Virus record (IMG/VR): IMGVR_UViG_2938655777_000006
Coordinates: 80,983 to 144,982 of that record
Direction: 5' to 3' (one strand)
DNA length: 64,000 bases
Source: a virus
Lineage: Duplodnaviria > Heunggongvirae > Uroviricota > Caudoviricetes
This document shows positions 43,108 to 60,584 of the stretch, piece after piece. Numbering within the stretch: position 1 is the first letter of the stretch; every line of letters starts with the position of its first letter. The notes under the pieces were generated by a model. The model was not told the DNA's origin, made no database searches, and saw only the letters and a program-made list of their open reading frames with translations. A program made the translations under genes and the position numbers.

Positions 43108-45435
43108 TTGACAAAAGTACTAAAAGACAGAAAAAGTTATACCCAACGATCAGATTTTGACCATGAAAGATTTGAACGTTTCTTCCACGAAATTGTTATG
43201 GATAGCGGCAAATCATTTGAAGAGAATGACTTGCAAGAGATGAAAGATAAAATCATCTCAGAAGTAGTGTCTAAGCAAGAAGTAAAAGCAGATTACTTGT
43301 TTGATTTGATTATTCGCGAATCAAACGATAGAATCAATCAATTCACACCACAATTTACCTACTTATCAGCTTCAACATTCAGACGTAAAAAATACAAAGA
43401 AGCTTCAAGAGAACGAGGATTCGACTACAAGGTTGGATATGGTGATTACTACACCCTTGTTAAAATGTTAACTGAAAAAGGAATATACTCAGAAGATATA
43501 TTGAACAGCTACAACAAAGATGAGATAGAATACGCTGGTGGATTTATTGACAGAGAAAGAGATCGAAAATTTAGCTACGCAGGTTTGTTCCTGTTTAACA
43601 AAAACTATTTGGCAAAAGGATACAATGAAGAAACCCTTGAGTTATTTCAAGAAAGATATCTAACATGTGCTCTTTATCTATTAAAAGACGAAGACAAAGA
43701 GAAGAGAATGGGTCTTGTTAAAGAAGCATATGATGTTTTAAGTCTTCATTTGGTGGGGCTTGCTACTCCAACGCTTGCTAATGCTGGTAGAGTAACTGGA
43801 ACTCTAAGTTCATGTCATATTATTACGATTGACGACAGTCTGCAAAGTATTATGGATGCAGTGAAAGACGCTTCAACATTTAGTCAGAATGGTGCTGGAT
43901 TGGGGATTTATCTTGGTCGTCTCAGATCTCATGGAAGTTGGATTCGTGGCTATAAAGGTCGATCTACTGGTGTAGTTGGCCCAGCTAAATTATTTAATGA
44001 AATTGCTACATACGTAAACCAACTCAATATGAGACCGGGTGGAGTAGCACTTTACCTACCATTATGGCACGCTGACATTTTTGACTTTCTAGATTTGAGA
44101 ATGAAAACTGGTTCACAGGAACGCAGAGCGCATTCCATTTTTACAGCAGTAAATGTACCCGATGAATTTATGCGTAGACTAAACGCACGAGACAATTGGA
44201 CTATATTTGATCCTTACGAAGTAAATAATAAACTCGGGATCGATATAAATAAATTGTATGACAAGAGAAAACTTCGTGACGGAGAAACACCAAACGAGAT
44301 AGATCATTCATTTACATACTACTATCGTGAGATTGAAAAAAATGACACCTTGGAATTGAAAAAAGTTGTTAAAGCAACTGATATCTATAAATCAATTTTT
44401 GAAGCTCAAAAAACTGGTGGTACACCTTACATGTATTATGTGGATACGGCTGCTCGTATGAATCCAAACAATCATGTAGGTATTCCGATTTCTTCTAATC
44501 TTTGCTCAGAGATTGTTTTAAACTGCGATTATGATGAATTTGTGAGCAAGGAGTTAAGTGAAGACGGTGTAGTAACTGAAAAGAAGAAAGGTTCTGGACT
44601 GGTAACTTGTAATCTAAGTTCCATTTCATTACCTGCCGTATTCGGTAATGATAATGTAGACCTTCAAAAAGTAATTGATATTCAATTTCGTCTATTAGAC
44701 AACGTAATTTCGTTGAATCGCACAGTTGTTGAACAAGCAACCCATACGAACAATATTTATCGTAGTGTGGGTGCTGGAGCTATGGGGCTAGCAAATCTCT
44801 TAGCAGAGAAAGGAATTCGATGGGAATCCGAAGCTGCTTCAGAATACGTAAAAGAAATTTTTGAAAAGTTAAACTATGCTCATATTCTTGCTAGTCATAA
44901 ACTAGCAGTGGAAAAAGGGTCATATAAGATGTATGAGGGTTCTGACTGGAATACAGGCGAATACTTTGAAAAGAGAAACTACAATTCCCCTGAATGGCTA
45001 GAACTAAAACAAATGGTTATGCAACAAGGAATTAGAAACGGTAATTTGAGTTGCGTTGCTCCTACTGGATCTAATAGTCTAATCAACAATGTCTTTGCTT
45101 CTCTAGATGCACCATATGAAGTAATCTTCCAAGAAGAAAAACAGGGAATGAATGTAACAGTTATTCCTGCAAACTATAGCGCTAAAACTAAATGGTACTA
45201 TAAATCAGGATTTGAGATGGATGAATTGTGGTCGCTGAAGATTGTTGCTGCGGCTCAAAAGGGAATAGATCAATCCATTTCTCATAATGTTATGGTGCAT
45301 GAATCAGTTAAAGCTAGTGAGATGTTGAAAATCCACACATTCGCTTGGGATTCTGGATGCAAATCTTTGTATTATACATATGTAGATAAAAATTCGGTAA
45401 ATAGAAAAGAAAACTGTGAGTCTTGTGCTGGATAA
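43108..45435 (+). CDS. nrdE: class Ib ribonucleotide reductase alpha subunit NrdE
   Basis: Active-site ISSNLCSEIVL, catalytic-loop regions; TTG start 7 nt after AAGGAGGAGA; C-terminal CESC pair. Confidence 0.7.
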   Translation: MTKVLKDRKSYTQRSDFDHERFERFFHEIVMDSGKSFEENDLQEMKDKIISEVVSKQEVKADYLFDLIIRESNDRINQFTPQFTYLSASTFRRKKYKEASRERGFDYKVGYGDYYTLVKMLTEKGIYSEDILNSYNKDEIEYAGGFIDRERDRKFSYAGLFLFNKNYLAKGYNEETLELFQERYLTCALYLLKDEDKEKRMGLVKEAYDVLSLHLVGLATPTLANAGRVTGTLSSCHIITIDDSLQSIMDAVKDASTFSQNGAGLGIYLGRLRSHGSWIRGYKGRSTGVVGPAKLFNEIATYVNQLNMRPGGVALYLPLWHADIFDFLDLRMKTGSQERRAHSIFTAVNVPDEFMRRLNARDNWTIFDPYEVNNKLGIDINKLYDKRKLRDGETPNEIDHSFTYYYREIEKNDTLELKKVVKATDIYKSIFEAQKTGGTPYMYYVDTAARMNPNNHVGIPISSNLCSEIVLNCDYDEFVSKELSEDGVVTEKKKGSGLVTCNLSSISLPAVFGNDNVDLQKVIDIQFRLLDNVISLNRTVVEQATHTNNIYRSVGAGAMGLANLLAEKGIRWESEAASEYVKEIFEKLNYAHILASHKLAVEKGSYKMYEGSDWNTGEYFEKRNYNSPEWLELKQMVMQQGIRNGNLSCVAPTGSNSLINNVFASLDAPYEVIFQEEKQGMNVTVIPANYSAKTKWYYKSGFEMDELWSLKIVAAAQKGIDQSISHNVMVHESVKASEMLKIHTFAWDSGCKSLYYTYVDKNSVNRKENCESCAG

Positions 45436-45499
45436 ATGATGAAATAGAAGAGAGGACTGTCTCTCTCTTCTTAATAATTTGTAGATAGGATGATGAGTA

Positions 45500-46525
45500 T
45501 TGGCTTTTAGAGTATTTAACGGAGAAGTGAATAATAAAGCAACCAAGATTTTTGGTGGTGAGGCAAGCGGTATATGTGATTGGGATGATATCAAATATCC
45601 TCATATGCTGACTCTGTATAAAGAATTATTTGGTAATTATTGGATTGAAGATGAGATTAGGCTTACTTCCGACCTTAAGCAATACCGTGACGGCCTAACA
45701 GAAAAAGAAAGATATACTTATAACGTTGTAACGGGAATGTTGACATCATTGGATTCTGTAGCTAATCGCTTTAATTTTACAATTGGGCATACCTGTACAG
45801 ATCCAAGTGTTGCAGCAGTCATCCAAATCATTGGTGCTTTTGAGGGATTACATGCTAGATCATATCAGTACTTAACTTCAACCATGCTTAACTCTGAACA
45901 AAAGAAACAGGCATTTAATGCGCCAAAAGAAATTCCGCTATTGCGAAAAAGAAACGATATCATTTTTAAAAAGATTCAAAACTTTATTGACGATCCAACC
46001 AACTTGGAAAAACTATATCATGCACTGCTTGCAAACTTAGTGCTCGAAGGTGTATTTTTCACCGGGGCATTTGTTTACTTTAATTCTCTTGCACGTTCAA
46101 ACAGAATGATTGGCTCCAATAACATGGTCAATCTCATTAAAACTGATGAGAATTTTCATTCGGTCTTTTATGGAGATGTAATGAAGATTCTGATGTTGGA
46201 AAACCCCGAATTAAATACTGAATTGAATCACAAAGAAGCTGTATCTTTTATCAAATCATGTGTAGAAAAAGAAAAAGAGTGGGCAGAATATATTTTTGAA
46301 GGAATAGATACGTTGTCTGTTCCAGAATATAAAGATTACGTTGAATATCTTGCAAATGTTATTTGTAGAAATGCTGGTATTCAAGAAGTTTATCCAGACA
46401 ATAAAGAACTGAAATCAAAATGGATTATTACCTATGGCTCAAAAGGTGGTAATACAAAAAGTGATTTCTTCCAAACGAATGTAATTTCATATGGACATGA
46501 AAGCGGCGATGGATTTGACCTATAA
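45500..46525 (+). CDS. nrdF: class Ib ribonucleotide reductase beta subunit NrdF
   Basis: Di-metal ligand motifs (EGLHARSY, ENFHSVF), ferritin-like fold; TTG start. Confidence 0.7.
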   Translation: MAFRVFNGEVNNKATKIFGGEASGICDWDDIKYPHMLTLYKELFGNYWIEDEIRLTSDLKQYRDGLTEKERYTYNVVTGMLTSLDSVANRFNFTIGHTCTDPSVAAVIQIIGAFEGLHARSYQYLTSTMLNSEQKKQAFNAPKEIPLLRKRNDIIFKKIQNFIDDPTNLEKLYHALLANLVLEGVFFTGAFVYFNSLARSNRMIGSNNMVNLIKTDENFHSVFYGDVMKILMLENPELNTELNHKEAVSFIKSCVEKEKEWAEYIFEGIDTLSVPEYKDYVEYLANVICRNAGIQEVYPDNKELKSKWIITYGSKGGNTKSDFFQTNVISYGHESGDGFDL

Positions 46526-46925
46526 CAATAAGGCTATCTATTATTATTCAATGTCTGGTAACACAAAAGCATTGGTAGCACTAGCTAATACACATGGTTA
46601 TGATATATATAATATGGCAACAATCCATCCAGATAATTTAGATTTTAAGAATTACGATATTTTGCTGATCGGTACGTCTACAGTTGGTCGAGGAGTTCCG
46701 CATAGATATTTCAAGGATATTTACCCTCTGATAAATGGTTTAACTGGCAGAAAAGTGGGATTGTTCGGCAGTGGGAATTCTATTTATGACGTTTACTGTG
46801 GAGCATTAGATTTATTAGAATCAGTTCTTCAAGATAATAACACCATCATATTCAAACTCAAATTTGAAAGTTACCCCACCAAAAAAGTGATTAAAGAGTT
46901 TAATGACTTGATTGGAGGAATTTGA
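46491..46925 (+). CDS. nrdI: NrdI-like flavodoxin
   Basis: FMN-loop IYYYSMSGNTK; real start probably ATG 46509; overlaps nrdF end. Confidence 0.5.
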   Translation: MDMKAAMDLTYNNKAIYYYSMSGNTKALVALANTHGYDIYNMATIHPDNLDFKNYDILLIGTSTVGRGVPHRYFKDIYPLINGLTGRKVGLFGSGNSIYDVYCGALDLLESVLQDNNTIIFKLKFESYPTKKVIKEFNDLIGGI

Positions 46926-46929
46926 ATTA

Positions 46930-47670
46930 TTGAAAGAAGCTCATGGAGGTATTTATTACTTAAGATTTAACGACAGGTATTATGTTGGCAAGGATTCTAA
47001 AGTAACAATTGATAAAAGAAAAAGAGAACATTTAAATCTATTGAGGCAAAATAGGCATTATAACTATAAGCTCCAAGAAGCATTTAATAATCTAGGAGAA
47101 GAGAATCTTGACTATGGAATAATTACATCTTCCCCAGATTATTCTCTTGATGAATTGGAACGTTTAGAGATTAAATACATAGAAGAGTACGATGCATATA
47201 CAAAGGGTTACAACCTAACACGTGGTGGATACGGAATGAATGGATACATTCTCACCCCAACTCAATGCCAACAGAGATCAGACAGTACTTATGGCGAAAA
47301 AAATGGAATGTCTAAGCTTACTAACGCGCAATTTTATGAAATAGTTGAGATGTTTAAAGAGGGCAAAGAGAATAAAGATATAGCTATTAAGTATGGTTTA
47401 CACGACCGTTATGTTTCATTATTAAGACACAAGAAAAGATTTAATAGACTCTGGCAAACTATTAAGGACTATACACCAGAAATTTCACATGGTAACGATA
47501 GAGCGAAATCAGTATCTCCAGAAGAGTTTGTAGAAATTGTAGTTAAAATTAAAAATGGAGCGACAAACGCTTCAGTAGAAAGAGAATATGGCTTATCATC
47601 TGGAACTGGGAGTCGAATTAGAAATAAGAAGCTTTACAGAGATTACTGGAGAAAATACTTTAATGAGTAA
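46930..47670 (+). CDS. GIY-YIG homing endonuclease (free-standing)
   Basis: GIYYLRFNDRYYVGKD...YNLTRGG GIY-YIG core; C-terminal basic DNA-binding repeats; TTG 46930 after GGAGG. Confidence 0.55.
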   Translation: MKEAHGGIYYLRFNDRYYVGKDSKVTIDKRKREHLNLLRQNRHYNYKLQEAFNNLGEENLDYGIITSSPDYSLDELERLEIKYIEEYDAYTKGYNLTRGGYGMNGYILTPTQCQQRSDSTYGEKNGMSKLTNAQFYEIVEMFKEGKENKDIAIKYGLHDRYVSLLRHKKRFNRLWQTIKDYTPEISHGNDRAKSVSPEEFVEIVVKIKNGATNASVEREYGLSSGTGSRIRNKKLYRDYWRKYFNE

Positions 47671-47694
47671 AAATATAAGGGAGCCAAAATACAT

Positions 47695-48522
47695 ATGACA
47701 ACTAAAAATAACAAGCAAGTAAAACAACCATTTTACGAAATTAATGAGACAGTTTATATCAAACCACTTAAGGTAAAAGGTGTTGTTAAGGGATATTTGG
47801 ATGGTTTGACAGTGGTAACATTTTTTATTAAAGGCAAAAGACGTACAAACAAGTTTGAAGACTCCTTGCTACGCCATTACAAAGAAAAAACAAATAAGTT
47901 AATCAGTATGCCAAAATTATTTAGAGGCGAACTTGTCCTTAATAAAAAAGATACAGAGACAATTACTAAAATCACTGAAATTTTAAAATCTTCAGTTAAT
48001 AACCCAATAGTACCTGAATCTATTTCCGACTTCTTTAAAGTACGCGAGTTCCAAAAAGCGTTTAATTGCCCTGCTCCAGATGTGCCAACTATCCTGTCAG
48101 ATAAATTGGCAATCAATCGTGCCTCTTTTATTCTTGAGGAAGTGATTGAGTTGTTGTATGCTACTGCTGGCAACAAAAAGAGATTCGATAAGTTTTTTGC
48201 TGAATTAATCTTGAATGCAGAAGAAACATATAAAAAACAACTCACTAAGCCTTTCCCTGAAGATCGTCTAATTGGGCAAATCGATGCTCTTATTGATATC
48301 AAGTATTTTGCTGAAGGAGGACTTGTTGAGGCTTCTGTTGTTCCTGATAGAATTTTTGATTTGGTTCATCAAGCAAATATGTCAAAAATTTTTCCCGATG
48401 GGAAGCCACATTATAATGAAGTAGGCAAGGTAATTAAACCTGAAGGATGGGAAGCTCCAGAACCTAAAATCGAAGAAGAAGTGAAGCGGCAAATTAAACT
48501 TGGCTCTAAACGATTCAATTGA
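47695..48522 (+). CDS. MazG-like NTP pyrophosphohydrolase (all-alpha) with N-terminal extension
   Basis: C-terminal region ...FQKAFNCPAPDVPTILSDKLAINRASFILEEVIELLYA... resembles MazG/dimeric dUTPase-type fold; RBS ataaGGGAGccaaaatacatATG. Confidence 0.45.
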   Translation: MTTKNNKQVKQPFYEINETVYIKPLKVKGVVKGYLDGLTVVTFFIKGKRRTNKFEDSLLRHYKEKTNKLISMPKLFRGELVLNKKDTETITKITEILKSSVNNPIVPESISDFFKVREFQKAFNCPAPDVPTILSDKLAINRASFILEEVIELLYATAGNKKRFDKFFAELILNAEETYKKQLTKPFPEDRLIGQIDALIDIKYFAEGGLVEASVVPDRIFDLVHQANMSKIFPDGKPHYNEVGKVIKPEGWEAPEPKIEEEVKRQIKLGSKRFN

Positions 48523-48583
48523 TTATAATGTGCTTGGGCGGTGGTAATTCCACTGCCTTTATTTATGAAGAGGAGTAGATAAT

Positions 48584-49372
48584 ATGTCATCCGTTGATAA
48601 CCAATATTTAGCGCTCGTAAGAGATATTCTAGAGAATGGATACGAAGATACCAATAGAACAGCAGATCGTAGCAAAAAAGTGTTTGGAAAAGTATTGCGT
48701 TTTAATCTTGCTGAAGAGTTCCCTCTTCTCACACTTAAATTCACTGGCTATAAAACACTAACTAAAGAAATGCTATGGATTTATCAGCAGGGATCGAATG
48801 ATGTACAGTGGCTAAATGATAGAGGTATTAAAATTTGGGATGAATGGAAGTTGCCCGATGGTACTATAGGCGAAGCTTATGGCGCTCAAATCAAAAAGCA
48901 TAATCAAATCAATAAGTTGATTAACGAACTTAAAAATAACCCCCAATCTAGAAGAATGGTTATTGATTTGTGGGCTGTTGCCGATTTGGATAAAATGTCG
49001 TTAACTCCTTGTATGTTTAATCACATTGCTGATGTGAATGATGGGAAGCTGAATTGGCATACAACAATTAGATCTTCTGATGTAGCTCTGGGCTTACCAT
49101 ACAATATAGCTCAGACAGCCATTCTAGTGCATATGATTGCACAAGTAGCTGGGTTACAAGTGGGAGAATTGATGATAGCAATAACTAATGCTCATCTGTA
49201 TGAACAACACTATGAGCCTATAAAGGAAATCTTCAACCGTACATCATATCCTGCACCTAAGTTGTGGCTTGATCCAACAGTAACAGATTTTCATGAATTT
49301 GATGTAGACAAACACGTTAAAGTGTTTAATTACCAATCACATCCGTCAATAAAAATGCGAGTATCAGTATGA
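48584..49372 (+). CDS. thyA: thymidylate synthase ThyA-family enzyme (TS or dUMP hydroxymethylase)
   Basis: Collinear with E. coli ThyA: IWDEW, RRMVIDLWAVADLDKMSLTPC (catalytic Cys), RSSDV, GLPYNIAQ (Asn = dUMP specificity), HLY; His after the Cys is replaced by Met. Confidence 0.65.
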   Translation: MSSVDNQYLALVRDILENGYEDTNRTADRSKKVFGKVLRFNLAEEFPLLTLKFTGYKTLTKEMLWIYQQGSNDVQWLNDRGIKIWDEWKLPDGTIGEAYGAQIKKHNQINKLINELKNNPQSRRMVIDLWAVADLDKMSLTPCMFNHIADVNDGKLNWHTTIRSSDVALGLPYNIAQTAILVHMIAQVAGLQVGELMIAITNAHLYEQHYEPIKEIFNRTSYPAPKLWLDPTVTDFHEFDVDKHVKVFNYQSHPSIKMRVSV

Positions 49373-49860
49373 GTATTATTGTTATAGCCGCTTTTGACAA
49401 GAATGGTTTGATAGGTAACGGCAATGAACTGCCTTGGAAGATTAAAACTGACATGGACTTTTTTAAGACACAAACCATAGGAAATAATGTTGTAATGGGC
49501 AGAAAAACATTTGAGAGTATTGGAAAGCCGCTTAAAAACAGAGTTAATATAATTCTCACAAGAAATATTGGCTATAAGGCAGATGGGTGCTTAGTCTTTA
49601 ATAGTATAGATGACATATTGAACTTCGCAAAAAAATCTGACAAAGAAACATTTATAATAGGTGGCAAAGAGGTATATGATTTATTTATGCCATATTCAGA
49701 TAAAATGATACTGACACAAATAGATGGGGAGTTTATCGGGGATACATATTTCCCTTTGTATGATTATAATAAGTGGAGAAAGGTCAACAGCATTGATATT
49801 GAAGCAGAAAAGCCTTACGACTATACAATAAGAATTGTATACTATGAATTAAATAAATAA
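49369..49860 (+). CDS. folA: dihydrofolate reductase
   Basis: IVIAAFDKNGLIGNGNELPW...VVMGRKTFESIG classic DHFR; ATGA overlap with thyA. Confidence 0.7.
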   Translation: MSIIVIAAFDKNGLIGNGNELPWKIKTDMDFFKTQTIGNNVVMGRKTFESIGKPLKNRVNIILTRNIGYKADGCLVFNSIDDILNFAKKSDKETFIIGGKEVYDLFMPYSDKMILTQIDGEFIGDTYFPLYDYNKWRKVNSIDIEAEKPYDYTIRIVYYELNK

Positions 49861-49877
49861 AAATAATGAAATACATA

Positions 49878-49906
49878 TATACAAAAATAATTAAATATGA
49901 TAATAT
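49878..49906 (+). promoter_or_regulatory. promoter, TATACA-17-TGaTAATAT (extended -10) with upstream TAATGAAATA element
   Basis: Same architecture and ~27/30-nt shared upstream sequence as promoter at 59062; predicted +1 falls inside left arm of the terminator hairpin. Confidence 0.4.
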
Positions 49907-49908
49907 GA

Positions 49909-49939
49909 GTACAGGTTAAATCAAGCCTGTACTTTTTTT
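49909..49939 (+). terminator. rho-independent terminator
   Basis: GTACAGG-ttaaatcaag-CCTGTAC followed by TTTTTTT, 49 nt after DHFR stop. Confidence 0.5.
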
Positions 49940-49981
49940 ATTAGGAGGTTGATAGTTTGAAAGAGTTGGCAAGGGAAGGAA

Positions 49982-50503
49982 GTGAAGAGTACGCTTTTCT
50001 TCATAACAAACATTGTACCTACGATCATATTGGGATTAATGATGAGGTATGGTCGTCGAATATTCAAAGAAGATTTTTCTCAAATAAATTCAAAATTAAA
50101 TAGAGAATCAATCTTCAATTCATTTTGTTTTGCCATTATGGGCTTCTCGATTATATCAAAATTATCTTCATTAGTGGTAGCACAGCAACCAGTAACACCG
50201 CATATTCAAACACCGATTATGTATGTGTATGCCATAGCATTTAGTCCTGTTTTTGAAGAATTAATTTGTAGAAAGTATATATTCACGAAACTACATAAAC
50301 GCTACAACTTTTGGCTGTCAGCAATTTTAAGTTCCATCATATTTGCAATTCCACACTTTAACGCAGTTAATTTTATAGCATACGTGTTTATTGGAATTGT
50401 ATGGAGTTGGTATTATAAAAAGACAGATAACATCCTAGTACCAATATTCAGCCATTTATTATTTAATTACTTCGTCATTTTATTTATGTCACTGAGAGGA
50501 TGA
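49982..50503 (+). CDS. CPBP (CAAX protease/Abi) family intramembrane metalloprotease
   Basis: Motifs EELICRKYIF (EExxxR), FAIPHF (FxxxH), HLLFN (HxxxN) in multi-TM protein; GTG start; strong SD AGGAGG at 49943 instead serves an out-of-frame TTG 49957. Confidence 0.5.
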   Translation: MKSTLFFITNIVPTIILGLMMRYGRRIFKEDFSQINSKLNRESIFNSFCFAIMGFSIISKLSSLVVAQQPVTPHIQTPIMYVYAIAFSPVFEELICRKYIFTKLHKRYNFWLSAILSSIIFAIPHFNAVNFIAYVFIGIVWSWYYKKTDNILVPIFSHLLFNYFVILFMSLRG

Positions 50504-50509
50504 AAAAAC

Positions 50510-50740
50510 ATGCAATTAAGTCATGAAGCACAAACACTGCTGGATATCTGTTGGGTTGATGGTGATCCTAGATCAACAACATTTATTATTGGAGAAAAGA
50601 CAAATTTTAAAGGCACAGAATTTAAGCCTAACGAAGAAACCTATAATGAATTATTGGAATATCAGTCCAGCTCTCCAAGACCATATAAGATTGAGAAGTT
50701 TGGCAAGTTCGTTAATCTCACGGGAAGGAAGGTGAAATAA
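50510..50740 (+). CDS. hypothetical protein (76 aa)
   Basis: Preferred over overlapping ORF 50523..50735. Confidence 0.35.
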   Translation: MQLSHEAQTLLDICWVDGDPRSTTFIIGEKTNFKGTEFKPNEETYNELLEYQSSSPRPYKIEKFGKFVNLTGRKVK

Positions 50741-50742
50741 AT

Positions 50743-50925
50743 TTGATTCACAACATTATACATAAAATATTCTGGAGTAAAGCATTTGAGGAAGTCAGAG
50801 AAGGACACAGGAAAATGTGCTATGAGCTAGGCATTAAAGATGGTCAGGATGAATTTGATAAAAATAATAAATTCTATAAAGAGTTTGCAGAAGCATATAA
50901 CAATGAATCAATCATATCAAATTAA
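50743..50925 (+). CDS. hypothetical protein (60 aa, TTG start)
   Basis: ORF in track. Confidence 0.35.
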   Translation: MIHNIIHKIFWSKAFEEVREGHRKMCYELGIKDGQDEFDKNNKFYKEFAEAYNNESIISN

Positions 50926-50953
50926 AATTAAATAATACATAGGAGAACAGTTG

Positions 50954-51241
50954 ATGAAAGTGAGTAACAGAGTTATTGAGCAGTATAAAGTGTGTTGTCC
51001 AATTAGTTTTTTAAAGTGTGATTCAATCACTGATGTTGAATACAAAATTAAAAGGGCAGTTACATTGGGAAGGAAATTTGCTGAACATGAAGACAGAAAA
51101 TATATACAATACCATTACCTTCAGTTTACAGTACAAAACGACAAAGTGGTTGATCTGACCAAAGATTATGATAAATACATAGAAGTCAGCGAAAGTATAA
51201 AAAACGCATATGATCGACTAGAAGGAAAGTTGCTAGTATAG
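50954..51241 (+). CDS. hypothetical protein (95 aa)
   Basis: ATG 50954 7 nt after AGGAGAA. Confidence 0.4.
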   Translation: MKVSNRVIEQYKVCCPISFLKCDSITDVEYKIKRAVTLGRKFAEHEDRKYIQYHYLQFTVQNDKVVDLTKDYDKYIEVSESIKNAYDRLEGKLLV

Positions 51242-51269
51242 CTCTTCGTAAAAGCCGTCTTTTATTAAA

Positions 51270-51878
51270 ATGGGAAATACATATAACAAGGTATTGATAA
51301 TACTAAAAGAGTTGATTTACATGATAGAAACTAAGAATATAGAGTTGACTACTCACGCTTTTGAACGAGTACAAGAGAGATTTGAGGATTATGGGAAAAA
51401 TAAAAAAATGGCAACAGATTATGTTAAAAAACTACTAAGAAGCTCTGAATACATTGGGTTAATTTCAGACAGAGATGAGGTAGACGCAGACTTTTATGTT
51501 TACAATAATGAGATAGCAATTCTAATAAGACCTAATACTACGCTGGTAGCAACCATATACAGTATTGATAGAGACAATCGACAATCCATTGGTTTTAGAG
51601 ATAAGGTGGTCGATTTATATAAAAAAGAATTAAGAAAAACTCATAGACTAGAAATGGCAAGACGAAGAAAAGTTGAAATTATAGAAGCCAAAAATGAAGC
51701 AGAAATAGCCATTCTAAAATTCAAACGGTTAACAACAAGATCAGAGAACGTAAAAAAAGAATGCAATAATAAGATTATTAAACTACAAAATGAAACATGG
51801 AATTATAAGAAAGAAATCAAGGACATACAGACACAGAAAAGGAACATTGCTTTTGCTATTGCAACTAATAATTTTTAA
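51270..51878 (+). CDS. hypothetical protein with C-terminal coiled coil
   Basis: ORF in track; alternative ATG 51321. Confidence 0.4.
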   Translation: MGNTYNKVLIILKELIYMIETKNIELTTHAFERVQERFEDYGKNKKMATDYVKKLLRSSEYIGLISDRDEVDADFYVYNNEIAILIRPNTTLVATIYSIDRDNRQSIGFRDKVVDLYKKELRKTHRLEMARRRKVEIIEAKNEAEIAILKFKRLTTRSENVKKECNNKIIKLQNETWNYKKEIKDIQTQKRNIAFAIATNNF

Positions 51879-51916
51879 ATAATACATAGAATATAATAAA
51901 TATAGAGGAGTAATGA

Positions 51917-52489
51917 ATATGCTCAACTGGATACGCAAGTGATATTTACGAGGGAAAAGAAGTACACGCAAAAGATTTTATTTTGAAATGTACAAGAGCA
52001 TTTGTAGCAACCGATATGAGAGATGCGCCATTGGATAAAGAAATTCCAGCACTTATGTTCTCTCCATACCACAAAGAATCACTAGGTAGGGTTATGGAGA
52101 GATTGGATTATTATCAAAAAATGACACTTGAAGAAGCGAAAGTTTTTGCAGAAGAGGAGTTCTTAGATTCAGTTGCAACTTATAACGATAGACTTAAATC
52201 AAAGCGACTGCTAAGAAAGAGGTATGAAGTTCTACTAGATGAAGTGATCTTGTGGAATCCTCCAACAGCAGAGCACACAGAACTAAAGAAATTTTGTGTA
52301 AATCAGATTAAAGATAGTATTGAATTGGACTGCGATGAAAGATTCATAAGTGTTCCATCTGGAAAACACCAGAGGAGTATATCGCTAATGGAATTAAGTC
52401 TGCTCAAAATGATATTGAATACTACACAAGAAAGCATAAAGAAGAAGTTGAACGAGTCAATAAGTGTAATCAATGGGTACAAGAATTGA
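51917..52489 (+). CDS. hypothetical protein; frame open from 51917 with no canonical start before TTG 51983
   Basis: SD AGAGGAG (51904-10) + 6 nt + ATA 51917; SD-led ATG 51919 in +1 frame gives only MLNWIRK*; protein-like sequence continues upstream of TTG 51983. Confidence 0.35.
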   Translation: MCSTGYASDIYEGKEVHAKDFILKCTRAFVATDMRDAPLDKEIPALMFSPYHKESLGRVMERLDYYQKMTLEEAKVFAEEEFLDSVATYNDRLKSKRLLRKRYEVLLDEVILWNPPTAEHTELKKFCVNQIKDSIELDCDERFISVPSGKHQRSISLMELSLLKMILNTTQESIKKKLNESISVINGYKN

Positions 52490-52745
52490 AGAGTTCTCTA
52501 TAAAAAATAAATATAACATATCGGAGGATAAATTTAATGGGAAAAGTGATTTTTGGAGCCACTAAAGAAGTGGTTGGAATGTATATGGATTAGATATTAG
52601 AGAAATATGATGACAGTTTAATGGTATTGGCTCCACCTTCAGGGACAATAAACACATACGCGCCATCCAAGAAAGGAAAAAGCAAGGGTTATGAACGAGT
52701 AAAACTGTGAATCAACAATAGATCATACCAAGGAGGGATATACAG

Positions 52746-52895
52746 ATGATCGGATGGTTTAAGAGATTAATATGCAAATACAGAGGGCACAAGTGGGAAA
52801 CGTATACGGTTAGCACGGGTTACTACAGTTACGACATAGAACAAGCAGGATATTGCACACGATGCAGCTATGACACTCATGGAGAATACGAATAG
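52746..52895 (+). CDS. small Cys/His-containing protein (49 aa)
   Basis: Hand-translated MIGWFKRLICKYRGHKWETYTVSTGYYSYDIEQAGYCTRCSYDTHGEYE; RBS caAGGAGGGatatacag. Confidence 0.3.
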   Translation: MIGWFKRLICKYRGHKWETYTVSTGYYSYDIEQAGYCTRCSYDTHGEYE

Positions 52896-52909
52896 GGGAG
52901 AATATGTAG

Positions 52910-53296
52910 ATGACACAAACATTGACAAGGGAGCAAGTTTTGGCGATGGAGCCAGTGGAAATCGACCGTCATATTCACATGATTTTGTTTGATGGCGAAG
53001 ATTTAACAGGATTTAAGTATAAACGTGTAACTTATACAATACCCGAAAGACGCACATTTGTTAAAGAAATTGATACGGGCGTGGTATGGAGAGAATGCCT
53101 AGCTTACTCTTTAGAGATTTCATCTGCATGGGAAGTTGAAGAAAAGATCAAGGAACTGAGGTTACAGGCTAAATATTGCATAGCATTAAAACAGGTTGTG
53201 ATTGGCACAGGAGAATATGTGGGAATGTTTGATTATATCCACGCAACTCCTGAACAACGTTGCAAAGCCGCGTTGTTGGCTGTACTGGACATTTAG
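52910..53296 (+). CDS. hypothetical protein (128 aa)
   Basis: RBS GGGGAGAAtatgtagATG. Confidence 0.4.
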   Translation: MTQTLTREQVLAMEPVEIDRHIHMILFDGEDLTGFKYKRVTYTIPERRTFVKEIDTGVVWRECLAYSLEISSAWEVEEKIKELRLQAKYCIALKQVVIGTGEYVGMFDYIHATPEQRCKAALLAVLDI

Positions 53297-53309
53297 GAGG
53301 ATGTTAAAG

Positions 53310-53714
53310 ATGAGCAATAAACACCGTGGTAAACACGTTCAAACAGGTGAATGGGCTTACGGTTATCTTATCGGAGATGATGTAATTGTTGGTGAGATTG
53401 TAGATTGGCATGATGAGTACTTTAACACTACACATTGGTATCTTGTAGAACCGACTACTGTTAGTAAATGTATAGAACTAAAAAATAAAAATGGCGTTGA
53501 AGCATACGATAAAGACATATTTAAAGTTCCCGATCTATATGAGACACCTGAGAATACATACCCAACATATCATTATGAGATGATTGAATATAGGGAATTT
53601 GCATGGCATTTGGGAGACCAGCCATTGTGCTACGACTATGATTTTGTATCAGATGTATGTGAGATCATTGGTAACATTCACGATAATCCTGAATTATTGG
53701 AGGCACGAACATGA
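53310..53714 (+). CDS. hypothetical protein (134 aa)
   Basis: ATG 53310 after ttAGGAGGatgttaaag; track ORF starts upstream inside previous gene. Confidence 0.4.
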   Translation: MSNKHRGKHVQTGEWAYGYLIGDDVIVGEIVDWHDEYFNTTHWYLVEPTTVSKCIELKNKNGVEAYDKDIFKVPDLYETPENTYPTYHYEMIEYREFAWHLGDQPLCYDYDFVSDVCEIIGNIHDNPELLEART

Positions 53715-53977
53715 AAGAAAAGCAATTCATATTTAATGGTTATCCAAGTGGAGATCACGAAGCATTTTGTTTTGATGTAGACAAAATTGATTTTAAACAA
53801 ATCACTGGAAGACAACCCAATAAATTTAATAAGGCGGTATTTAACAAAGGAATGTATATGGTTTATCCAAATGACTTGTTAGATGGGTTAACTGAGTCAG
53901 GAAAAAGGTATAAATTTGAAATCTCTATAAAGGTAATCGAAGAAGATATCTCAAAGGAGGGGAATGACAATGAATGA
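53711..53977 (+). CDS. hypothetical protein (88 aa)
   Basis: ATGA overlap. Confidence 0.4.
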   Translation: MKEKQFIFNGYPSGDHEAFCFDVDKIDFKQITGRQPNKFNKAVFNKGMYMVYPNDLLDGLTESGKRYKFEISIKVIEEDISKEGNDNE

Positions 53978-54339
53978 AATTCTAACAATCATAAAAAAGC
54001 TTAAAAAAGGTAAAAGAGTTATGTTTAAAAAAGTCAGCAAGAAGAATGCAGTATGTGCGCTATTAAATGAATATAAAATTACTACATATATTGAAGGGAT
54101 CTTTTGTGCAGATCGGCTATCAACATACAGATGAATATGAGAAGGAGAATATCAAACAATGAGTTGCTTAGAAGTTACTATGCGTGGATTGTCTAATATG
54201 CTCTACAACATCTCGCAAAACCCATGCAAAGAGAATTGCAATGTCATGTTGGACAGCATTAAGCGAACTCTTGTTGACTATAATAAAGTGGGTGGGAACA
54301 TCAATATTAAAGATTTTAGAGAAAAGGAGTAATCGAATA

Positions 54340-54705
54340 ATGTTTAAAAAAGAAGAAGTTGAATTATATTTAAACCTACACGATGATGTTACAAATAAGA
54401 TTTATGACATAATTCATTTACATAGTGCAATTGATAATAAATATTATGAAGTCAATGAAATACAATATAAAAATAACGTCATCATAGTGGATGTTGAATA
54501 TTATAAATATGGAGATCTTGAGTACGATTGCATACATATTGATCCACGAATGCTGTACGAAGAAGAATATTTTAATGAACTCAAGAATGAGACCGAGCAA
54601 GTGGAAAATGAACGATTAAATCAAATTAAAACTAAAGAGCAGCAGAGAATAAAAGAAGAATTAGAAAAGGCGCGCCAGTTAATTGCTAAGTATGAACATC
54701 AATAA
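54340..54705 (+). CDS. hypothetical protein (121 aa)
   Basis: ATG 54340 after AAAAGGAGtaatcgaata. Confidence 0.4.
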   Translation: MFKKEEVELYLNLHDDVTNKIYDIIHLHSAIDNKYYEVNEIQYKNNVIIVDVEYYKYGDLEYDCIHIDPRMLYEEEYFNELKNETEQVENERLNQIKTKEQQRIKEELEKARQLIAKYEHQ

Positions 54706-54742
54706 GATAAAAGTCTAGTTTTATCACTAAGAGGGATAAATT

Positions 54743-54982
54743 GTGGAAGAAGAATATGAATATCTTAAAGTGATCAACGATACTTTAGTTAATAAAGGTG
54801 AATACATTTTTAAGGAAGAAAATGCTGCTCAAAAATTTGCAAGAGAAGTGTTATCAGAGGCAGAAAACCAATACTCAGATGAGGGCTATTATCACGAATA
54901 CGAAGACTTTAAAGATTTCCTTTATACTCATCATGTTGATAGTATCGCATACTTCATTTATGGAGATAAGTATTCAAACTAA
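54743..54982 (+). CDS. hypothetical acidic protein (79 aa, GTG start)
   Basis: ctaAGAGGGAtaaattGTG. Confidence 0.4.
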   Translation: MEEEYEYLKVINDTLVNKGEYIFKEENAAQKFAREVLSEAENQYSDEGYYHEYEDFKDFLYTHHVDSIAYFIYGDKYSN

Positions 54983-55038
54983 TTCGTAGCCGATCAAATA
55001 CCTGTTTTACTAAAATAAAAATAAAGGAGAAATGTTGA

Positions 55039-55782
55039 ATGACATTAGAAAATAATATTAAAGATGTAATCAGTAAAAAACTTGAGGACGGAACTGTTGA
55101 ACGTTTAATTAGCGAACAACTTGAAAAAGGAGTCATTAATGCATTAGATAATATGTTCAGACCCTATGGAGATGTAACAAAGGTTATCGAAGAGCAAGTG
55201 AAGTCAGTTATGGTTCCATATATCGAATCTTATGATTATTCAAAATACATAATCAAAATGGACAGCGTACTAATAGATGTGTTGGATAGTTCGGCACTCG
55301 AAAATAAAAATCTACTTAAAAATTTTAAAACAGTGATTGAATTTGATGAACAAAAAGAAATTAAAGCCTCTGAACTTTATGAAAAATGGATGAAGTATGT
55401 GTCTGAAAATGTAGACACAAGCGAGTTAGAAGTAAATACCGATGACGGAGTAAGTTATGAATATGTCGATGTTCATCTTAGTATTGACCGAGATGAAAGT
55501 AGAAGTTGGAGTAGTTACGAGTATGCCAATCTAATTTTTGAATGTGAGCAAGATGAAGACGTGAATCAATCTATTCGTCTTTACAGATGGAAAGATGAGA
55601 AGAATAAAGGTTGGGATATTGAACGACACGAAATAAGAGATATTAAATCACTTAGATATTTAGACGAATTCGAATTGTTGCTTATGAATCTCTCCCAAAA
55701 CCGCACCAAAATTATTGTTGATACTGACGAAGAAAGTGATGAAGTTTTACCTGAAGCAGAACCAGAAGTGAGCTTTAGTTAA
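55039..55782 (+). CDS. hypothetical acidic protein (247 aa)
   Basis: RBS AAGGAGA 8 nt before ATG. Confidence 0.45.
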   Translation: MTLENNIKDVISKKLEDGTVERLISEQLEKGVINALDNMFRPYGDVTKVIEEQVKSVMVPYIESYDYSKYIIKMDSVLIDVLDSSALENKNLLKNFKTVIEFDEQKEIKASELYEKWMKYVSENVDTSELEVNTDDGVSYEYVDVHLSIDRDESRSWSSYEYANLIFECEQDEDVNQSIRLYRWKDEKNKGWDIERHEIRDIKSLRYLDEFELLLMNLSQNRTKIIVDTDEESDEVLPEAEPEVSFS

Positions 55783-55817
55783 TACATATTACTGTAAAAC
55801 ACTTGTTTTATAGAACT

Positions 55818-55849
55818 TGCTGCTCCTCAGGAGTCTATAAGGAGCAGCA
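55818..55849 (+). terminator. stem-loop (possible terminator, no clear U-run)
   Basis: ttgctgctcct-caggagtctata-aggagcagcaa perfect 10-bp stem 36 nt after gene 55039..55782. Confidence 0.3.
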
Positions 55850-56081
55850 CACTTATTAATGGGTTAATTCGAGAACAATTTCAAGCAATACATCAAATAG
55901 AACTTCTTTTAATTCCCATGTTGAATCGATAAAACGACTTGGAAAGATTACATTTACGTAGAAAGAAATGCAGATTTTGCGATAGGTATTAGATAAATGA
56001 GTAAAAATGATCAAGGTGTAACCACTCCTTTATTTTGTGACTCCTACACCTTGATTTCCTAGACAAGTTTGCGCTCTATAT

Positions 56082-56166
56082 ATGAGTACATTGTTAATTT
56101 TTATAGACAGACACGTTTTTGTGAGAAAGTGTTTCATTTTAGTGAGTACAATTGTTATTTATGGAC
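56082..56166 (+). repeat. two copies of a ~25-bp direct repeat upstream of sigma-factor gene
   Basis: aTGAGTACAtTGTTAaTTTtTAtaGAC (56082-56108) and gTGAGTACAaTTGTTATTTATGGAC (56142-56166); preceded by 10-bp inverted repeat tcaaggtgta/tacaccttga (56011-56054). Confidence 0.35.
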
Positions 56167-56228
56167 TACAAAATGATTTTAGCGAAGGAAAATGCAAAAA
56201 ATATCATTATACATAGAGGCGAAATAGC

Positions 56229-56870
56229 ATGATTAACAAGACATTAAATTATAAAAGAGATCCTAGCTTGAACAACGAAGAGATGATTAAAGAAGCAAAA
56301 CTAACTAACAATAAAGAACTTAGGGATAAGATTATAAATAACAATATTCCTTTTGTTAAAAGCCTAGCTGACCGTTGGTATAAGCGTGGAGTCCCAGAAG
56401 AGTTTGATGATTTATTAGGCATGGGAATGGTAGCACTAATGAAGGCTTACTATACATATGACACGAATAAGAATATTAAATTTGCCTCATATCTTGGAAA
56501 AGTAGTATGGAAAGAATTTATGGCACATTCTAGGTACAAAAGCATGAAATGTCGTAGCAAATACTCCAGTATTAGTTTCAATGAAACTCTTCATAAAACA
56601 AAAGGAACAGTCGAAGAAAAGCTGCTTGCTGAAGTTATTCCTAATGACAGTCACTTAGATTATCTGACAGTTGAAGATGAGATGTTCAATACACATTTAG
56701 TCGAACAAATGGATGGATTGTTGGCGAAAAAGGAGAGAATTGTTGCTGACAAATACTTTTTCGAAGGGAAAAGCATATCGGAAATTGGGGTTGAACTTGG
56801 TGTGTCGCGTCAGGCAGCGCATCAAGCTTTTCAAAGAACGATTAAGAGGCTAACGCCAATATATACATAA
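56229..56870 (+). CDS. sigma-70-family RNA polymerase sigma factor (phage-encoded)
   Basis: Region 2-like FDDLLGMGMVALMKAYYTYD; region 4.2 HTH SISEIGVELGVSRQAAHQAFQRTIKRL. Confidence 0.6.
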   Translation: MINKTLNYKRDPSLNNEEMIKEAKLTNNKELRDKIINNNIPFVKSLADRWYKRGVPEEFDDLLGMGMVALMKAYYTYDTNKNIKFASYLGKVVWKEFMAHSRYKSMKCRSKYSSISFNETLHKTKGTVEEKLLAEVIPNDSHLDYLTVEDEMFNTHLVEQMDGLLAKKERIVADKYFFEGKSISEIGVELGVSRQAAHQAFQRTIKRLTPIYT

Positions 56871-56996
56871 AAGTAAAACTCATATTTTATGAAGAAAGGG
56901 ATGGCATAGAACAGGGTACGACACAAAATCCATTGTAATATTCTCTCATAGATATAAAATAACCATTATAAAACAAATCTTATGGGGGAAAAGCCA

Positions 56997-57572
56997 ATGA
57001 ACAAAAGAGTAAGAACGTTGTCAATAAATGAAATGAATATCTTAATTTCTTCTTCTGCGCTAATTTCTACAATTATGCTTTTAGTTTTTTTGTACTCACC
57101 CTTTTGCGTGATCGCAGCATTGATAGTGTATTGTATTTTCTTTTTCTGGATATTTAAACTTCTTTGGATGATGTTTTATTCCAAATGGATATTGAAGTTG
57201 CCCGGAAAATCAATACTTAGAACAAGAAAATTGATCGAAGTGCATGTCGGTGATTTAGCAAAAAACGAAGCATCAAAATTCTTGTCAATAAATTCAAAAT
57301 CGGTTTTAGTAGCACACCAACTAAAAAAAGATGCAGTTTTTTATTCATGGCATCGCAGCCCAGAAAAATACAAGGAATTCTTCGGTGATTGTGCAGATAT
57401 TGTGACTGTGGAAGGGTTTGAGAGATTTGCACAATTGTTTAGAAACCGATCTTACAAGCCTGAAGAGGTGGAATATCCTTTAACGAGAGTGTATGTGTTC
57501 TGGAATAAACTTGACGACCACACAATTGCTAAGTTGGAGAGACATGTGAAAAGAGGAAGGTCTGCTGCTTAG
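56997..57572 (+). CDS. membrane protein (2 TM) with soluble C-terminal domain
   Basis: ATG 56997 7 nt after GGGGGA; TM helices LISSSALISTIMLLVFLY, IAALIVYCIFFFWIF. Confidence 0.4.
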   Translation: MNKRVRTLSINEMNILISSSALISTIMLLVFLYSPFCVIAALIVYCIFFFWIFKLLWMMFYSKWILKLPGKSILRTRKLIEVHVGDLAKNEASKFLSINSKSVLVAHQLKKDAVFYSWHRSPEKYKEFFGDCADIVTVEGFERFAQLFRNRSYKPEEVEYPLTRVYVFWNKLDDHTIAKLERHVKRGRSAA

Positions 57573-57675
57573 TTTTAGGGGGGCAAGTATCCCCCTAAAA
57601 ATTTTAGCTTTAGTGAGCATGAAGTGAAAAGATGATTAAGGGAAAAGTTATTTCTATCAAGGAAGAAGGGATAAG

Positions 57676-58254
57676 GTGACAACTTGGTACACAAGCGATA
57701 CACATTTTAGTCATAAAAATATTATTCAGCATGAAAGTAGGCCGTTTAATTCTGTTGAACAGATGGATGAAGCTCTCATTGATAATTGGAACCGTCACAT
57801 TAAAAATGATGATATAGTGTACCATCTAGGCGATTTTGTATTTGGCGGTATTTCAAAATGGGAAAATATTATTCCACGATTAAAAGGCAAGATTCATTTA
57901 GTAGTTGGAAACCACGATAACGATAAGGTATTGAAAAAGGTATCTCATTATTTTGAATCAATTGAAAACATAATCGTTAAGAAAATCGATAAGCAGCATT
58001 TGTTTTTGTTCCATTATCCCATAGAGGTTGGATTAACTCCAAATGCTTATTCAATACATGGTCATATCCACTCACGTCCCTCAAATATGATTAATCAAAT
58101 AAATGTAGGTGTAGACAGCGATTTTACCAAAGAGAAGGTTGGTTTTGGAAACCCGATTCCTGAAGATGTTATTCTACGTGAACTATTGATTAGAAAAGAA
58201 GCTATATTGCAACTTAGAGGCAGTAGTAGAGGTGATCGACATAGAGATAAATAA
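57676..58254 (+). CDS. calcineurin-like metallophosphoesterase
   Basis: Motifs SDTHFSH (DxH), GDFVFGG (GDxx), GNHDND (GNH[DE]); GTG start after AAGGAAGAAGGGAtaag. Confidence 0.55.
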   Translation: MTTWYTSDTHFSHKNIIQHESRPFNSVEQMDEALIDNWNRHIKNDDIVYHLGDFVFGGISKWENIIPRLKGKIHLVVGNHDNDKVLKKVSHYFESIENIIVKKIDKQHLFLFHYPIEVGLTPNAYSIHGHIHSRPSNMINQINVGVDSDFTKEKVGFGNPIPEDVILRELLIRKEAILQLRGSSRGDRHRDK

Positions 58255-58267
58255 ATACATGGAGATT

Positions 58268-58393
58268 ATGAACAATAAAAAGGACACAAAGCAAATTACA
58301 GATGAACAATATGCAAAATACATAAGCAAACTTTGGCAGTGGCAAATAAACAGCAGTACAGAATATTATCAATCGGAGGACGATCACTTTTGA
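58268..58393 (+). CDS. small hypothetical protein (41 aa)
   Basis: Hand-translated MNNKKDTKQITDEQYAKYISKLWQWQINSSTEYYQSEDDHF; RBS catGGAGattATG. Confidence 0.3.
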   Translation: MNNKKDTKQITDEQYAKYISKLWQWQINSSTEYYQSEDDHF

Positions 58394-58408
58394 TGATCAA
58401 TAATACAT

Positions 58409-58864
58409 ATGAAATTTCTAAACCAAAATGATATTTTTCAAATTTTAAAGAAGTCTCTCAAGAAGCATTATGGCAATTTCACGAGCGAACCCAAGATTGA
58501 AATTGATGTTGATGTAATGACTAGTAAATATGATTTTTATTCGAGAAAAATTAGTTTTAGTGGAAAGATTGTATCTTTTAAATATAGTGAGGAAATCTAT
58601 AAGAGAAGACTTACTTTGAAAGAAATTGAGGGAATGATTGAATTAGAGTTAGGTGGAGAAGTAAATGTTGCAGCATACATAAATGAGATTGAAGAAGTCT
58701 TAACAAGAGATAGTTACAATAACCACACTGTTTTAGTAGCTACAGTGACAAACGAAAAACTTTCATTAGATAAAGATTGCATCATGACTTTAATTGACAT
58801 AGCTATTGATATGAACGATAAAGAGTGGTTTATTGAGCTAACAAATAAATATAATCAATTATGA
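58409..58864 (+). CDS. hypothetical protein (151 aa)
   Basis: ORF in track. Confidence 0.4.
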   Translation: MKFLNQNDIFQILKKSLKKHYGNFTSEPKIEIDVDVMTSKYDFYSRKISFSGKIVSFKYSEEIYKRRLTLKEIEGMIELELGGEVNVAAYINEIEEVLTRDSYNNHTVLVATVTNEKLSLDKDCIMTLIDIAIDMNDKEWFIELTNKYNQL

Positions 58865-59019
58865 ATTAAACTAACGTTTGACGACATCAAGAATGTAAAT
58901 TATATCAAGAATAATGAGTAGAACTACATTGATACATATATAAAACTCAATGTTTATAAGGGTTTTTCGATAGTAATTTCTACGTAAAATCCTGATTTTA
59001 TTCATTGCTCAATACTACT

Positions 59020-59103
59020 CTTATAGGATCTAAATATTATATAAATAAATATAATGAAATATATACAAAATAATAAAGCCGTGATATAATCATCTTATAG
59101 GAT
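59020..59103 (+). repeat. 11-bp exact direct repeat TCTTATAGGAT flanking the promoter (candidate operator/centromere-like iterons)
   Basis: Copies at 59020-59030 and 59093-59103; additional ATCAAGAAT x2 at ~58893-58920. Confidence 0.4.
59062..59090 (+). promoter_or_regulatory. promoter, TATACA-17-TGaTATAAT (extended -10)
   Basis: TATACA 59062-67, TG 59082-83, TATAAT 59085-90; upstream TAATGAAATA element shared with 49878 promoter; ~75-nt leader to ParM-like gene. Confidence 0.45.
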
Positions 59104-59172
59104 GTATTACATTGTACGACACTGTTGAGCTACTGTCATACTTTGATACTCATTGTATTTGGAGGTAATATC

Positions 59173-60138
59173 ATGGCTTTAACTGTAGTGAAAAATTTAA
59201 GTGTGATTGATCTCGGATTTAGCTACACCAAGGGGAAAACAGGCAATACAATGTATCTTCAGCCTTCTATCTCCGGCGATGTTCAACCAATGTTTGAAGA
59301 AAACATCAAACCAAATGATTTTTTCTATAACGACGAATTATTTGTAGGGAATGTCGCCCTAAGGCACAGTGAGATTAAATATTTCACACTTAAAAATAAT
59401 AAGAGTGAAGCGATGACTTCTGACGTTTTGCTGAAAACTGGATTAGGATATTTAAATAAAAACAACCCATTTAATATGGTAACTGGACTACCTGTATTAT
59501 TCTATTTCAATCAAAAAAGTGATATGGAAAAGATGTTGGATCGAATAAACAGAGAGGATGCTTACAGCCTTAAGAAAGGCAGGGGAAATTATTCAGAAAT
59601 TAAACTTCATATAAATAAATATAAACTTGTTCCACAGGGATATGGCATAGCTATGGATTATCTGCTAGACAATAAAGGAAAGATCCAAAAAGTACATATT
59701 GCAAATAAAAAGGTATTGGTAATTGACTTAGGATTCTATACGTTAAACCTTTTGGGTTTAGATAAACTAGAAATAATGAAAGAATCAACAAGCCTTCTTT
59801 TGGGTGTTGAAAAGGCATATCAGTTATTGCGTAAGTACTTAATGAATGCTATAGGCAAGGCTCCAGCTATTTATGAACTGGACAAGTATGTGATAAGCGG
59901 TATATACGAAGGACGAAATATAAAACCATTAATAGCAAAAGCATTTAAATCACTAGCGATCCAAATTCAAAATGAGGTTGACGGACTAAATATAAATTTT
60001 GATTATTATCTAATTGGTGGAGGTGCAGCACATCAGATTTATAACACACTTAACTTCAAGAATAAAGTACTTTTCGATCAGCTTTCACAAATAAGAGGGT
60101 ATGAAAAAATTGGAGTTAGAGCATGGGGAAGAAACTAG
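59173..60138 (+). CDS. actin-like ATPase, ParM/Alp (StbA) family
   Basis: Phosphate-1 VIDLGFSYTK, phosphate-2 VLVIDLGFYTLNL, adenosine YYLIGGGAA, collinear with ParM; ATG 59173 7 nt after GGAGG. Confidence 0.55.
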   Translation: MALTVVKNLSVIDLGFSYTKGKTGNTMYLQPSISGDVQPMFEENIKPNDFFYNDELFVGNVALRHSEIKYFTLKNNKSEAMTSDVLLKTGLGYLNKNNPFNMVTGLPVLFYFNQKSDMEKMLDRINREDAYSLKKGRGNYSEIKLHINKYKLVPQGYGIAMDYLLDNKGKIQKVHIANKKVLVIDLGFYTLNLLGLDKLEIMKESTSLLLGVEKAYQLLRKYLMNAIGKAPAIYELDKYVISGIYEGRNIKPLIAKAFKSLAIQIQNEVDGLNINFDYYLIGGGAAHQIYNTLNFKNKVLFDQLSQIRGYEKIGVRAWGRN

Positions 60139-60401: not shown

Positions 60402-60584
60402 GTAGGCTTCGGCCTACAATACATAAAATGAGGAAAGCTACAAGGATTAAAATCAAAATTAAACTGAATATCTGAGGTTCTAAGTGAATAAGTGTTATGT
60501 TAATGGCATTAAATATTTGATAAAACATATCAGCATGTCATAGCCCATATTAGGCATATACTGTCTCAACGAGAGGTGATTACT

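Follow-up and report, generated by a model that had tools for sequence, protein, structure and literature searches.

The DNA analysed (hereafter the window) is a stretch of 64,000 nucleotides of the virus record IMGVR_UViG_2938655777_000006 (positions 80,983 to 144,982 of that record). Its G+C content is 31–36%, and every ORF of appreciable coding potential lies on the + strand. The window encodes NrdD, a class I RNR, ThyA, DHFR, YopX, a sigma factor and an AlfA-like actin, and also Pol III alpha, YorH and homologues of Gad1 and Gad2; we infer that it lies in a large SPbeta-like prophage within a 406.5-kb contig. Comparison with the genome of Paenibacillus sp. EKM208P (GCA_011066295.1, JAAMNT010000006.1) showed that the two are identical (0 mismatches in 20,459 nt), with position 1 of the window corresponding approximately to position 81,006 of JAAMNT010000006.1.

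Direct reading of the sequence showed that the SD sequence AGAGGAG is followed by TAATGA and then by ATA 51917–51919, which is the first sense codon of a long reading frame after an in-frame TAA and an in-frame TGA. The translation of this long frame begins ICSTGYASDIYEGKEVHAKDFILKCTRAF..., and its earliest canonical start is TTG 51983. The ATG at 51919–51921 is in another frame, in which it reads ATG CTC AAC TGG ATA CGC AAG TGA, and a ribosome starting there requires a +1 shift to reach the long frame. This layout (SD, ATA, ATG 51919 with its seven codons and TGA, TTG 51983) is as reported in a preliminary description made from the sequence alone, which had considered it a recurring arrangement of an SD, 6 nt and an ATA start. 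A second frameshift, at 52363–52366, lies beyond what that description had noticed. The features of the gene at this locus (designated as gene X, 51919–52503) and of its neighbour (designated as gene Y) are as follows:

51904..51910, + strand: SD of gene X, AGAGGAG, 8 nt before the ATG; it aligns with AAAGGAG of the P. polymyxa homologue.
51919..51921, + strand: ancestral ATG start of gene X, as aligned with the ATG at position 10001 of the P. polymyxa locus (L001).
51919..51942, + strand: 7-codon remnant ORF (MLNWIRK and TGA at 51940–51942), by translation the predicted present product of the SD-led ATG.
51922..51923, + strand: site of the 1-nt insertion in codon 2, the extra base being C51922 or T51923 (single-column gap in the pairwise DNA alignment).
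51923..52366, + strand: gene X codons 2–149 (STGYASDIY...ISVPSGK), now +1 relative to the ATG (tblastn; dN/dS 0.19).
52363..52366, + strand: site of the 1-nt deletion, an A4 run (DNA alignment with the P. polymyxa homologue).
52366..52503, + strand: C-terminal 45 codons of gene X (TPEEYIANGIK...WVQELKSSL) and TAA (second tblastn HSP; dN/dS 0.16).
52367..52489, + strand: out-of-frame tail (HQRSISLM...VINGYKN and stop) of the annotated fragments KAF6630668.1 and P0183.
52537..52710, + strand: pseudogene Y, with TAG at codon 19 and homology ending after codon 57.

The long frame matched phrog_8905 from profile position 3, which corresponds to the Thr codon at 51926 (E = 9e-36), and the frame-corrected gene X protein matched the same family with residues 4–195 against positions 3–210 of the 215 in the profile (E = 9.3e-36). 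Among 1.84 billion representatives searched with the profile, 4991 belong to this family. The best 150 of the 4991 are about 195–205 aa long, each matches as one stretch, and the whole profile is covered from residue 1 in nearly all 150. With tblastn, the family was detected in 33 phage records (Bacillus, Pseudomonas, Sinorhizobium, Caulobacter, Streptomyces and others), 31 of which match at least 80% of the query in one unbroken place. The AlphaFold model of the gene X protein (pLDDT 95.4) is predicted to be all-helical, with long coiled-coil helices. No Pfam family was found for the corrected protein or for 92 family members, a PDB sequence search with the family profile revealed no relative, and Foldseek against the PDB gave generic coiled-coil matches (E > 0.3) and no significant fold match. 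Taken together, these results indicate that gene X is a member of a widespread family of phage proteins of about 200 aa, predicted to be all-helical.

A word-index protein search with gene X matched four proteins. The closest intact homologue (P0001), from P. polymyxa, has 195 aa, shares 69% aa identity with gene X and reads MPTGYTSDIYEGREVHAKDF...ELKSSL, and two intact full-length metagenomic members (P0003 and P0004) start with MSTGYTA.... The fragment that NCBI annotated on the window's own record, KAF6630668.1 (P0002), starts at TTG 52031 and ends in the out-of-frame tail ...VINGYKN; a Logan gene call for the same fragment (P0183) starts at ATG 52015. Closer relatives in the protein database were limited to the 69% homologue and the fragments from EKM208P itself, and megablast of 50900–53300 against phage records gave no match. 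No near-identical intact copy of gene X was found in the genome contigs or IMG/VR searched, and the ancestral state of the gene was therefore reconstructed from the 69%-identical homologue and the family profile.

The nucleotide alignment with the P. polymyxa locus paired AAAGGAG-agctaaat-ATG-CCA-ACA-GGA-TAT of the homologue with AGAGGAG-taatgaat-ATG-C[T]CA-ACT-GGA-TAC of the window. The 8-nt spacer and the position of the ATG are equal in the two, and the window has one additional base in codon 2. The SD, the 8-nt spacer and the ATG correspond base for base to those of an intact homologue, and the layout is not a chance one. The preliminary description had suspected a 1-nt indel after ATG 51919, and the alignment revealed it as the extra base at 51922/3, which displaces the coding frame by one base right after the ATG. 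At 443 nt downstream, the window reads GG-AAAACACC and the homologue GGTAAAACACC, showing that one base is missing from the A-run at 52363–52366; base 52366 is required by both frames. From about this base onward the homologous reading is found in the ATG frame (TPEEYIANGIKSAQNDIEYYTRKHKEEVERVNKCNQWVQELKSSL and stop), so that the true C-terminus of gene X, TPEEYIANGIK...ELKSSL with its stop at 52501–52503, is back in the frame of ATG 51919, and the last 41 codons of the long frame are out-of-frame junk. The tblastn search with the P. polymyxa protein also gave two HSPs in separate frames, one for residues 3–150 in frame +2 (67% identity) and the other for residues 148–195 in frame +1 (77% identity). 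By alignment, these data show that ancestral gene X would have been a single ORF from the SD-led ATG 51919 to TAA 52501–52503, into which one base was inserted at codon 2 and from which one base was deleted in the A-run.

The family supports ATG 51919 as the SD-led start that the preliminary description had seen in it: it aligns with the ATG of the homologue, and the N-terminal motif M-x-[ST]-G-[YF] is at residue 1 in 140 of the 152 members examined, with MPTGYT in 105 of the 152. Homologues starting at the position of TTG 51983, an outcome that had been considered, were not seen in the N-terminal alignment, in which the starts fall at the ATG-equivalent position.

Comparison of the reconstructed gene X with the P. 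polymyxa homologue by the Nei–Gojobori method gave a dN/dS of 0.18 for the whole gene, with 0.19 in the middle and 0.16 in the C-terminal segment; codons 2–8 contain four synonymous and two non-synonymous differences. Purifying selection across all three segments suggests that gene X evolved as one ORF in the frame of the homologue and that the lesions are recent relative to its split from that homologue. Gene X deviates at three of the 31 columns that are conserved at 90% or more (T6A, A25T and G29V), and only 10 of 92 members have three or more such deviations; this may reflect relaxed constraint, yet the overall dN/dS against the 69%-identical homologue is still at the low value given above.

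Lesions were also found elsewhere in the window. Two 1-nt deletions, one in a C-run near 10197–10200 and the other in a G-run near 10387–10389, divide gene 10097–10523 among three frames, and an intact homologue of 142 aa is present in IMGVR_UViG_2919361683_000002 (L014). The 61-aa gene call at 10097–10282 on the NCBI contig is just the first fragment of this gene, and the layout of ATG 10250 and ATA 10255 falls mid-gene. Gene 11219–11401 is small and Cys-rich; its six IMG/VR homologues read MKVNTDSICLKCEHFWHECGD... and carry M-K-[VI]-N-T-[DS]-S-I-C-L-K-C... in one frame. Against four of the six intact homologues, the window gene is 2 nt short in Ile codon 8 (at about 11240) through a deletion, and ATG 11219 now opens an 11-codon ORF ending in TGA, with the gene body in the +1 frame. 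The statement of the preliminary description that the layout at 51919 recurs at 11219/11244 was correct, and a frameshift lesion underlies it there as well. In total, at least five indels occur across three small genes (10097, 11219 and gene X). The long conserved genes are intact, including those for NrdD (731 aa) and RNR (775 aa), ORFs of 528 and 524 aa, and others. This clustering fits selection on a still largely functional phage genome with a few dispensable genes, and not random sequencing error. For the other start-less ORFs of the window, PHROG and tblastn searches against phages found nothing, and the IMG/VR scans gave relatives.

The neighbour of gene X is also damaged. The family of gene Y has 29 members of 93–104 aa, and gene Y was aligned with a 93-aa protein of this family. 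The TAG at codon 19 (52591–52593) is CAA or CAG in the relatives, and a different module stands in place of the last 36 codons, with the mosaic junction just upstream of the DUF1660 gene at 52746. The neighbourhood is mosaic in relatives too, with gene X present in the P. polymyxa locus (L001) and absent from three others (L003–L005). The gene X locus is a mosaic accessory region of the prophage.

The homologues of gene X are single ORFs, the indels can be aligned, the fragments lie in different frames, and the lesion is present in an independent assembly (see below). Given these findings, gene X (51919–52503) is very probably an ordinary frameshift pseudogene in the EKM208P prophage. The cause of the layout would then be ordinary. 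Like gene X, prophage genes annotated by PGAP as 'frameshifted' or as truncated ORFs have intact single-ORF homologues and 1–2-nt indels. Several lesions affect a gene and its neighbours in both cases, and the remnants are annotated as short hypothetical proteins, here KAF6630668.1 (152 aa). There is no essential difference between them; the oddity of gene X is that one indel is in codon 2, and the SD and ATG, themselves intact, now lead into a 7-codon ORF resembling a recoding site.

Ribosomes loading at the SD would be expected to start at ATG 51919, to make MLNWIRK and to stop at UGA 51940–51942. The body of gene X would then be untranslated, or at most weak internal or near-cognate starts would give traces of a product with neither the true C-terminus nor the near-invariant N-terminus. 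In the displaced frame, ATA 51917 would be no more than the first sense codon to follow two stops. At the level of the prophage, a few dispensable accessory genes would each gather several inactivating lesions and the large conserved genes would stay intact.

It is possible that gene X is intact in the organism and that both indels are errors of the draft sequence, which came from a proprietary pipeline. EKM208P was sequenced by Illumina NovaSeq (150-bp paired-end, 136x) and assembled with EvoCAT, and the draft comprises 2,164 contigs and 6.75 Mb, compared with 102–208 contigs and 5.6–5.9 Mb in six sister strains (PMC7441237). The number of contigs and the excess size of about 1 Mb suggest contamination or a mixed culture, and one of the two indels is in a short homopolymer (A4). 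However, P0002 shares its 90% cluster with a protein from Logan, which assembles public runs independently, and the Logan contig from SRR11051674 (the EKM208P reads) is identical to window 42016–61427, with 0 mismatches in 19,412 nt. This stretch takes in both gene X indels and the neighbouring TAG, and an assembler artefact is excluded for the gene X indels. The simple in-frame ATG that resequencing might have given was likewise not seen, as the independent assembly of the same reads gives the same sequence. Because the two assemblies were built from one set of reads, a mixed culture or a systematic read error is conceivable; however, the consensus indel rate of Illumina NovaSeq is very low, and a read-level error behind the indels is very unlikely given this platform and the 136x depth. 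In addition, neither the insertion in codon 2 nor the 2-nt deletion at 11240 is in a homopolymer. All five indels are confined to three small genes, and the long conserved genes are free of them; random error would not give such a distribution, and the adjoining gene Y has a substitution-type nonsense codon and a structural truncation. We therefore consider a sequencing or assembly artefact improbable.

Another possibility is that the long frame starts at AUA 51917 by non-AUG initiation, giving M-C-S-T-G-Y.... The distance of 6 nt from the SD is workable, AUA is a near-cognate codon, and the product would keep the conserved TGY motif with one extra residue; moreover, ORF 2241–2537 of the window looks like a case of a conserved non-AUG (ATT) start. 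In infC, translation is initiated at an AUU start codon, and gene X resembles infC in having a near-cognate AUN codon 6 nt after an SD. Unlike infC, gene X has a competing canonical start on the same SD: AUG 51919 overlaps the AUA and, at the ancestral and better spacing of 8 nt, would capture initiation. AUA is among the weakest of the near-cognate start codons. The homologues start at the AUG, with M-[PS]-T-G-Y at the ATG-equivalent position, and among the 152 family members examined, three have 11–30 extra residues ahead of the motif, one has two (P0027, MGMPTGY) and none has exactly one. Translation from the AUA would, furthermore, still reach the second frameshift, and the 45 conserved C-terminal residues would be missing from the product. 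The proposed recurring ATA start thus found no support at this locus, where the ATA simply follows two stops, and initiation at AUA 51917 is very improbable.

Programmed frameshifting would produce a regulated full-length protein by an early prfB-like +1 shift using UGA 51940 and a later −1 shift at GGA-AAA-C. In the programmed +1 shift of prfB (RF2), a short 0-frame ORF ends in UGA within a CUU-UGA-C site, with an SD-like stimulator 3 nt upstream. Gene X shares with prfB the short 0-frame ORF, with a UGA soon after the start, and the main frame in +1, but it lacks both a CUU-UGA-type slippery codon and an internal SD 3 nt upstream, and the AAG before its UGA cannot re-pair at +1. Homology places the shift of gene X at codon 2 (S/P-T-G-Y in the long frame from 51923), 18 nt upstream of UGA 51940–51942. 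The −1 shifts of dnaX and IS elements rely on A AAA AAG together with an upstream SD and a downstream hairpin. In gene X, too, the second indel is at an A-run: if tRNA-Lys slipped by −1 on A-AAA, exactly the ...GKTPEEY... of the homologue would be restored. However, gene X has just A-AAA-C, in the context U GGA AAA C, with no X XXY YYZ heptamer and no hairpin, and the homologues are one base longer and are read straight through. Downstream RNA structure at the two gene X sites was no better than in shuffles (z +2.33 and +0.06); the 83 nt downstream of the second site gave −4.1 kcal/mol (z +2.33), thus folding worse than shuffles. No Rfam family reached threshold in 51000–53000. Neither shift was found in the closest homologue, in 31 of the 33 phage records or in the best 150 of the 4991 representatives, and there would be no precedent for a gene that has two efficient shifts but lacks conserved signals. 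The +1 recoding at the UGA put forward in the preliminary description did not hold, given that the shift is at codon 2, that no homologue shares it and that the gene has a second, opposite indel. Programmed frameshifting of gene X is hardly credible on this evidence.

We give equally little credence to a residual, low-level decoding of the gene, in which the long frame would be entered at AUA 51917, or by an immediate +1 slip after AUG 51919, and tRNA-Lys would then slip spontaneously by −1 on GGA-AAA-C, so that a near-full-length protein might be made. If this were true, the double frameshift would be a strong attenuator of a possibly harmful lysogen accessory gene and not a complete knock-out. 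Stop-codon reassignment or a suppressor tRNA was rejected, as the window has no tRNA genes, stop usage is normal (TAA 45, TGA 26, TAG 15, with dense intact ORFs under table 11), and a frame that reads TGA 51940 as sense still meets a TAA shortly after.

With gene X read as a frameshift pseudogene, the combination of an SD, an out-of-frame ATG and a start-less long frame in this window would mostly be a footprint of small indels (10097, 11219 and 51919). The pattern implies no new mode of initiation or recoding. Its biological consequence is slight, although the negative result is useful. For annotation, it implies that KAF6630668.1 is a fragment of a frameshifted gene and should be treated as a pseudogene of the phrog_8905 family, and that 52537–52710 is a second pseudogene. 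The analysis also sets these indel cases apart from ORF 2241–2537, whose non-AUG layout is conserved in relatives and may merit attention.

ORF 2241–2537 has 98 codons and good coding potential, and contains no in-frame ATG, GTG or TTG. The SD GGAGGG at 2247–2252 precedes ATT 2259, and there is no out-of-frame ATG nearby. The same start-less layout (SD, ATAGCA and ATT) is present in two IMG/VR relatives, of which one (L015) is identical across the ORF. The other (L016) has 95% aa identity, a different upstream gene and 16 nt differences, nine of them at third codon positions. A scan of the genome contigs for this ORF gave one weak match without meaning. These observations suggest that ORF 2241–2537, unlike the 51919 site, is a candidate for genuine AUU (non-AUG) initiation, and for an infC-type mechanism it is the better candidate of the two in the window.

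Homologues of the anti-Gabija proteins Gad2 (PF26128) and Gad1 (PF25705) and a Macro-domain protein are encoded in the early prophage region (5046–5693, 7027–7926 and 8909–9358), and the P. polymyxa relative carries a second Gad2-like gene (L001 15602–16576). A CPBP/Rce1-like gene encodes 173 aa in the window (49982–50740) and 120 aa in the P. polymyxa relative (L001 8824–9422), where its call runs about 100 nt into the following one; this suggests a separate lesion or rearrangement in the relative.
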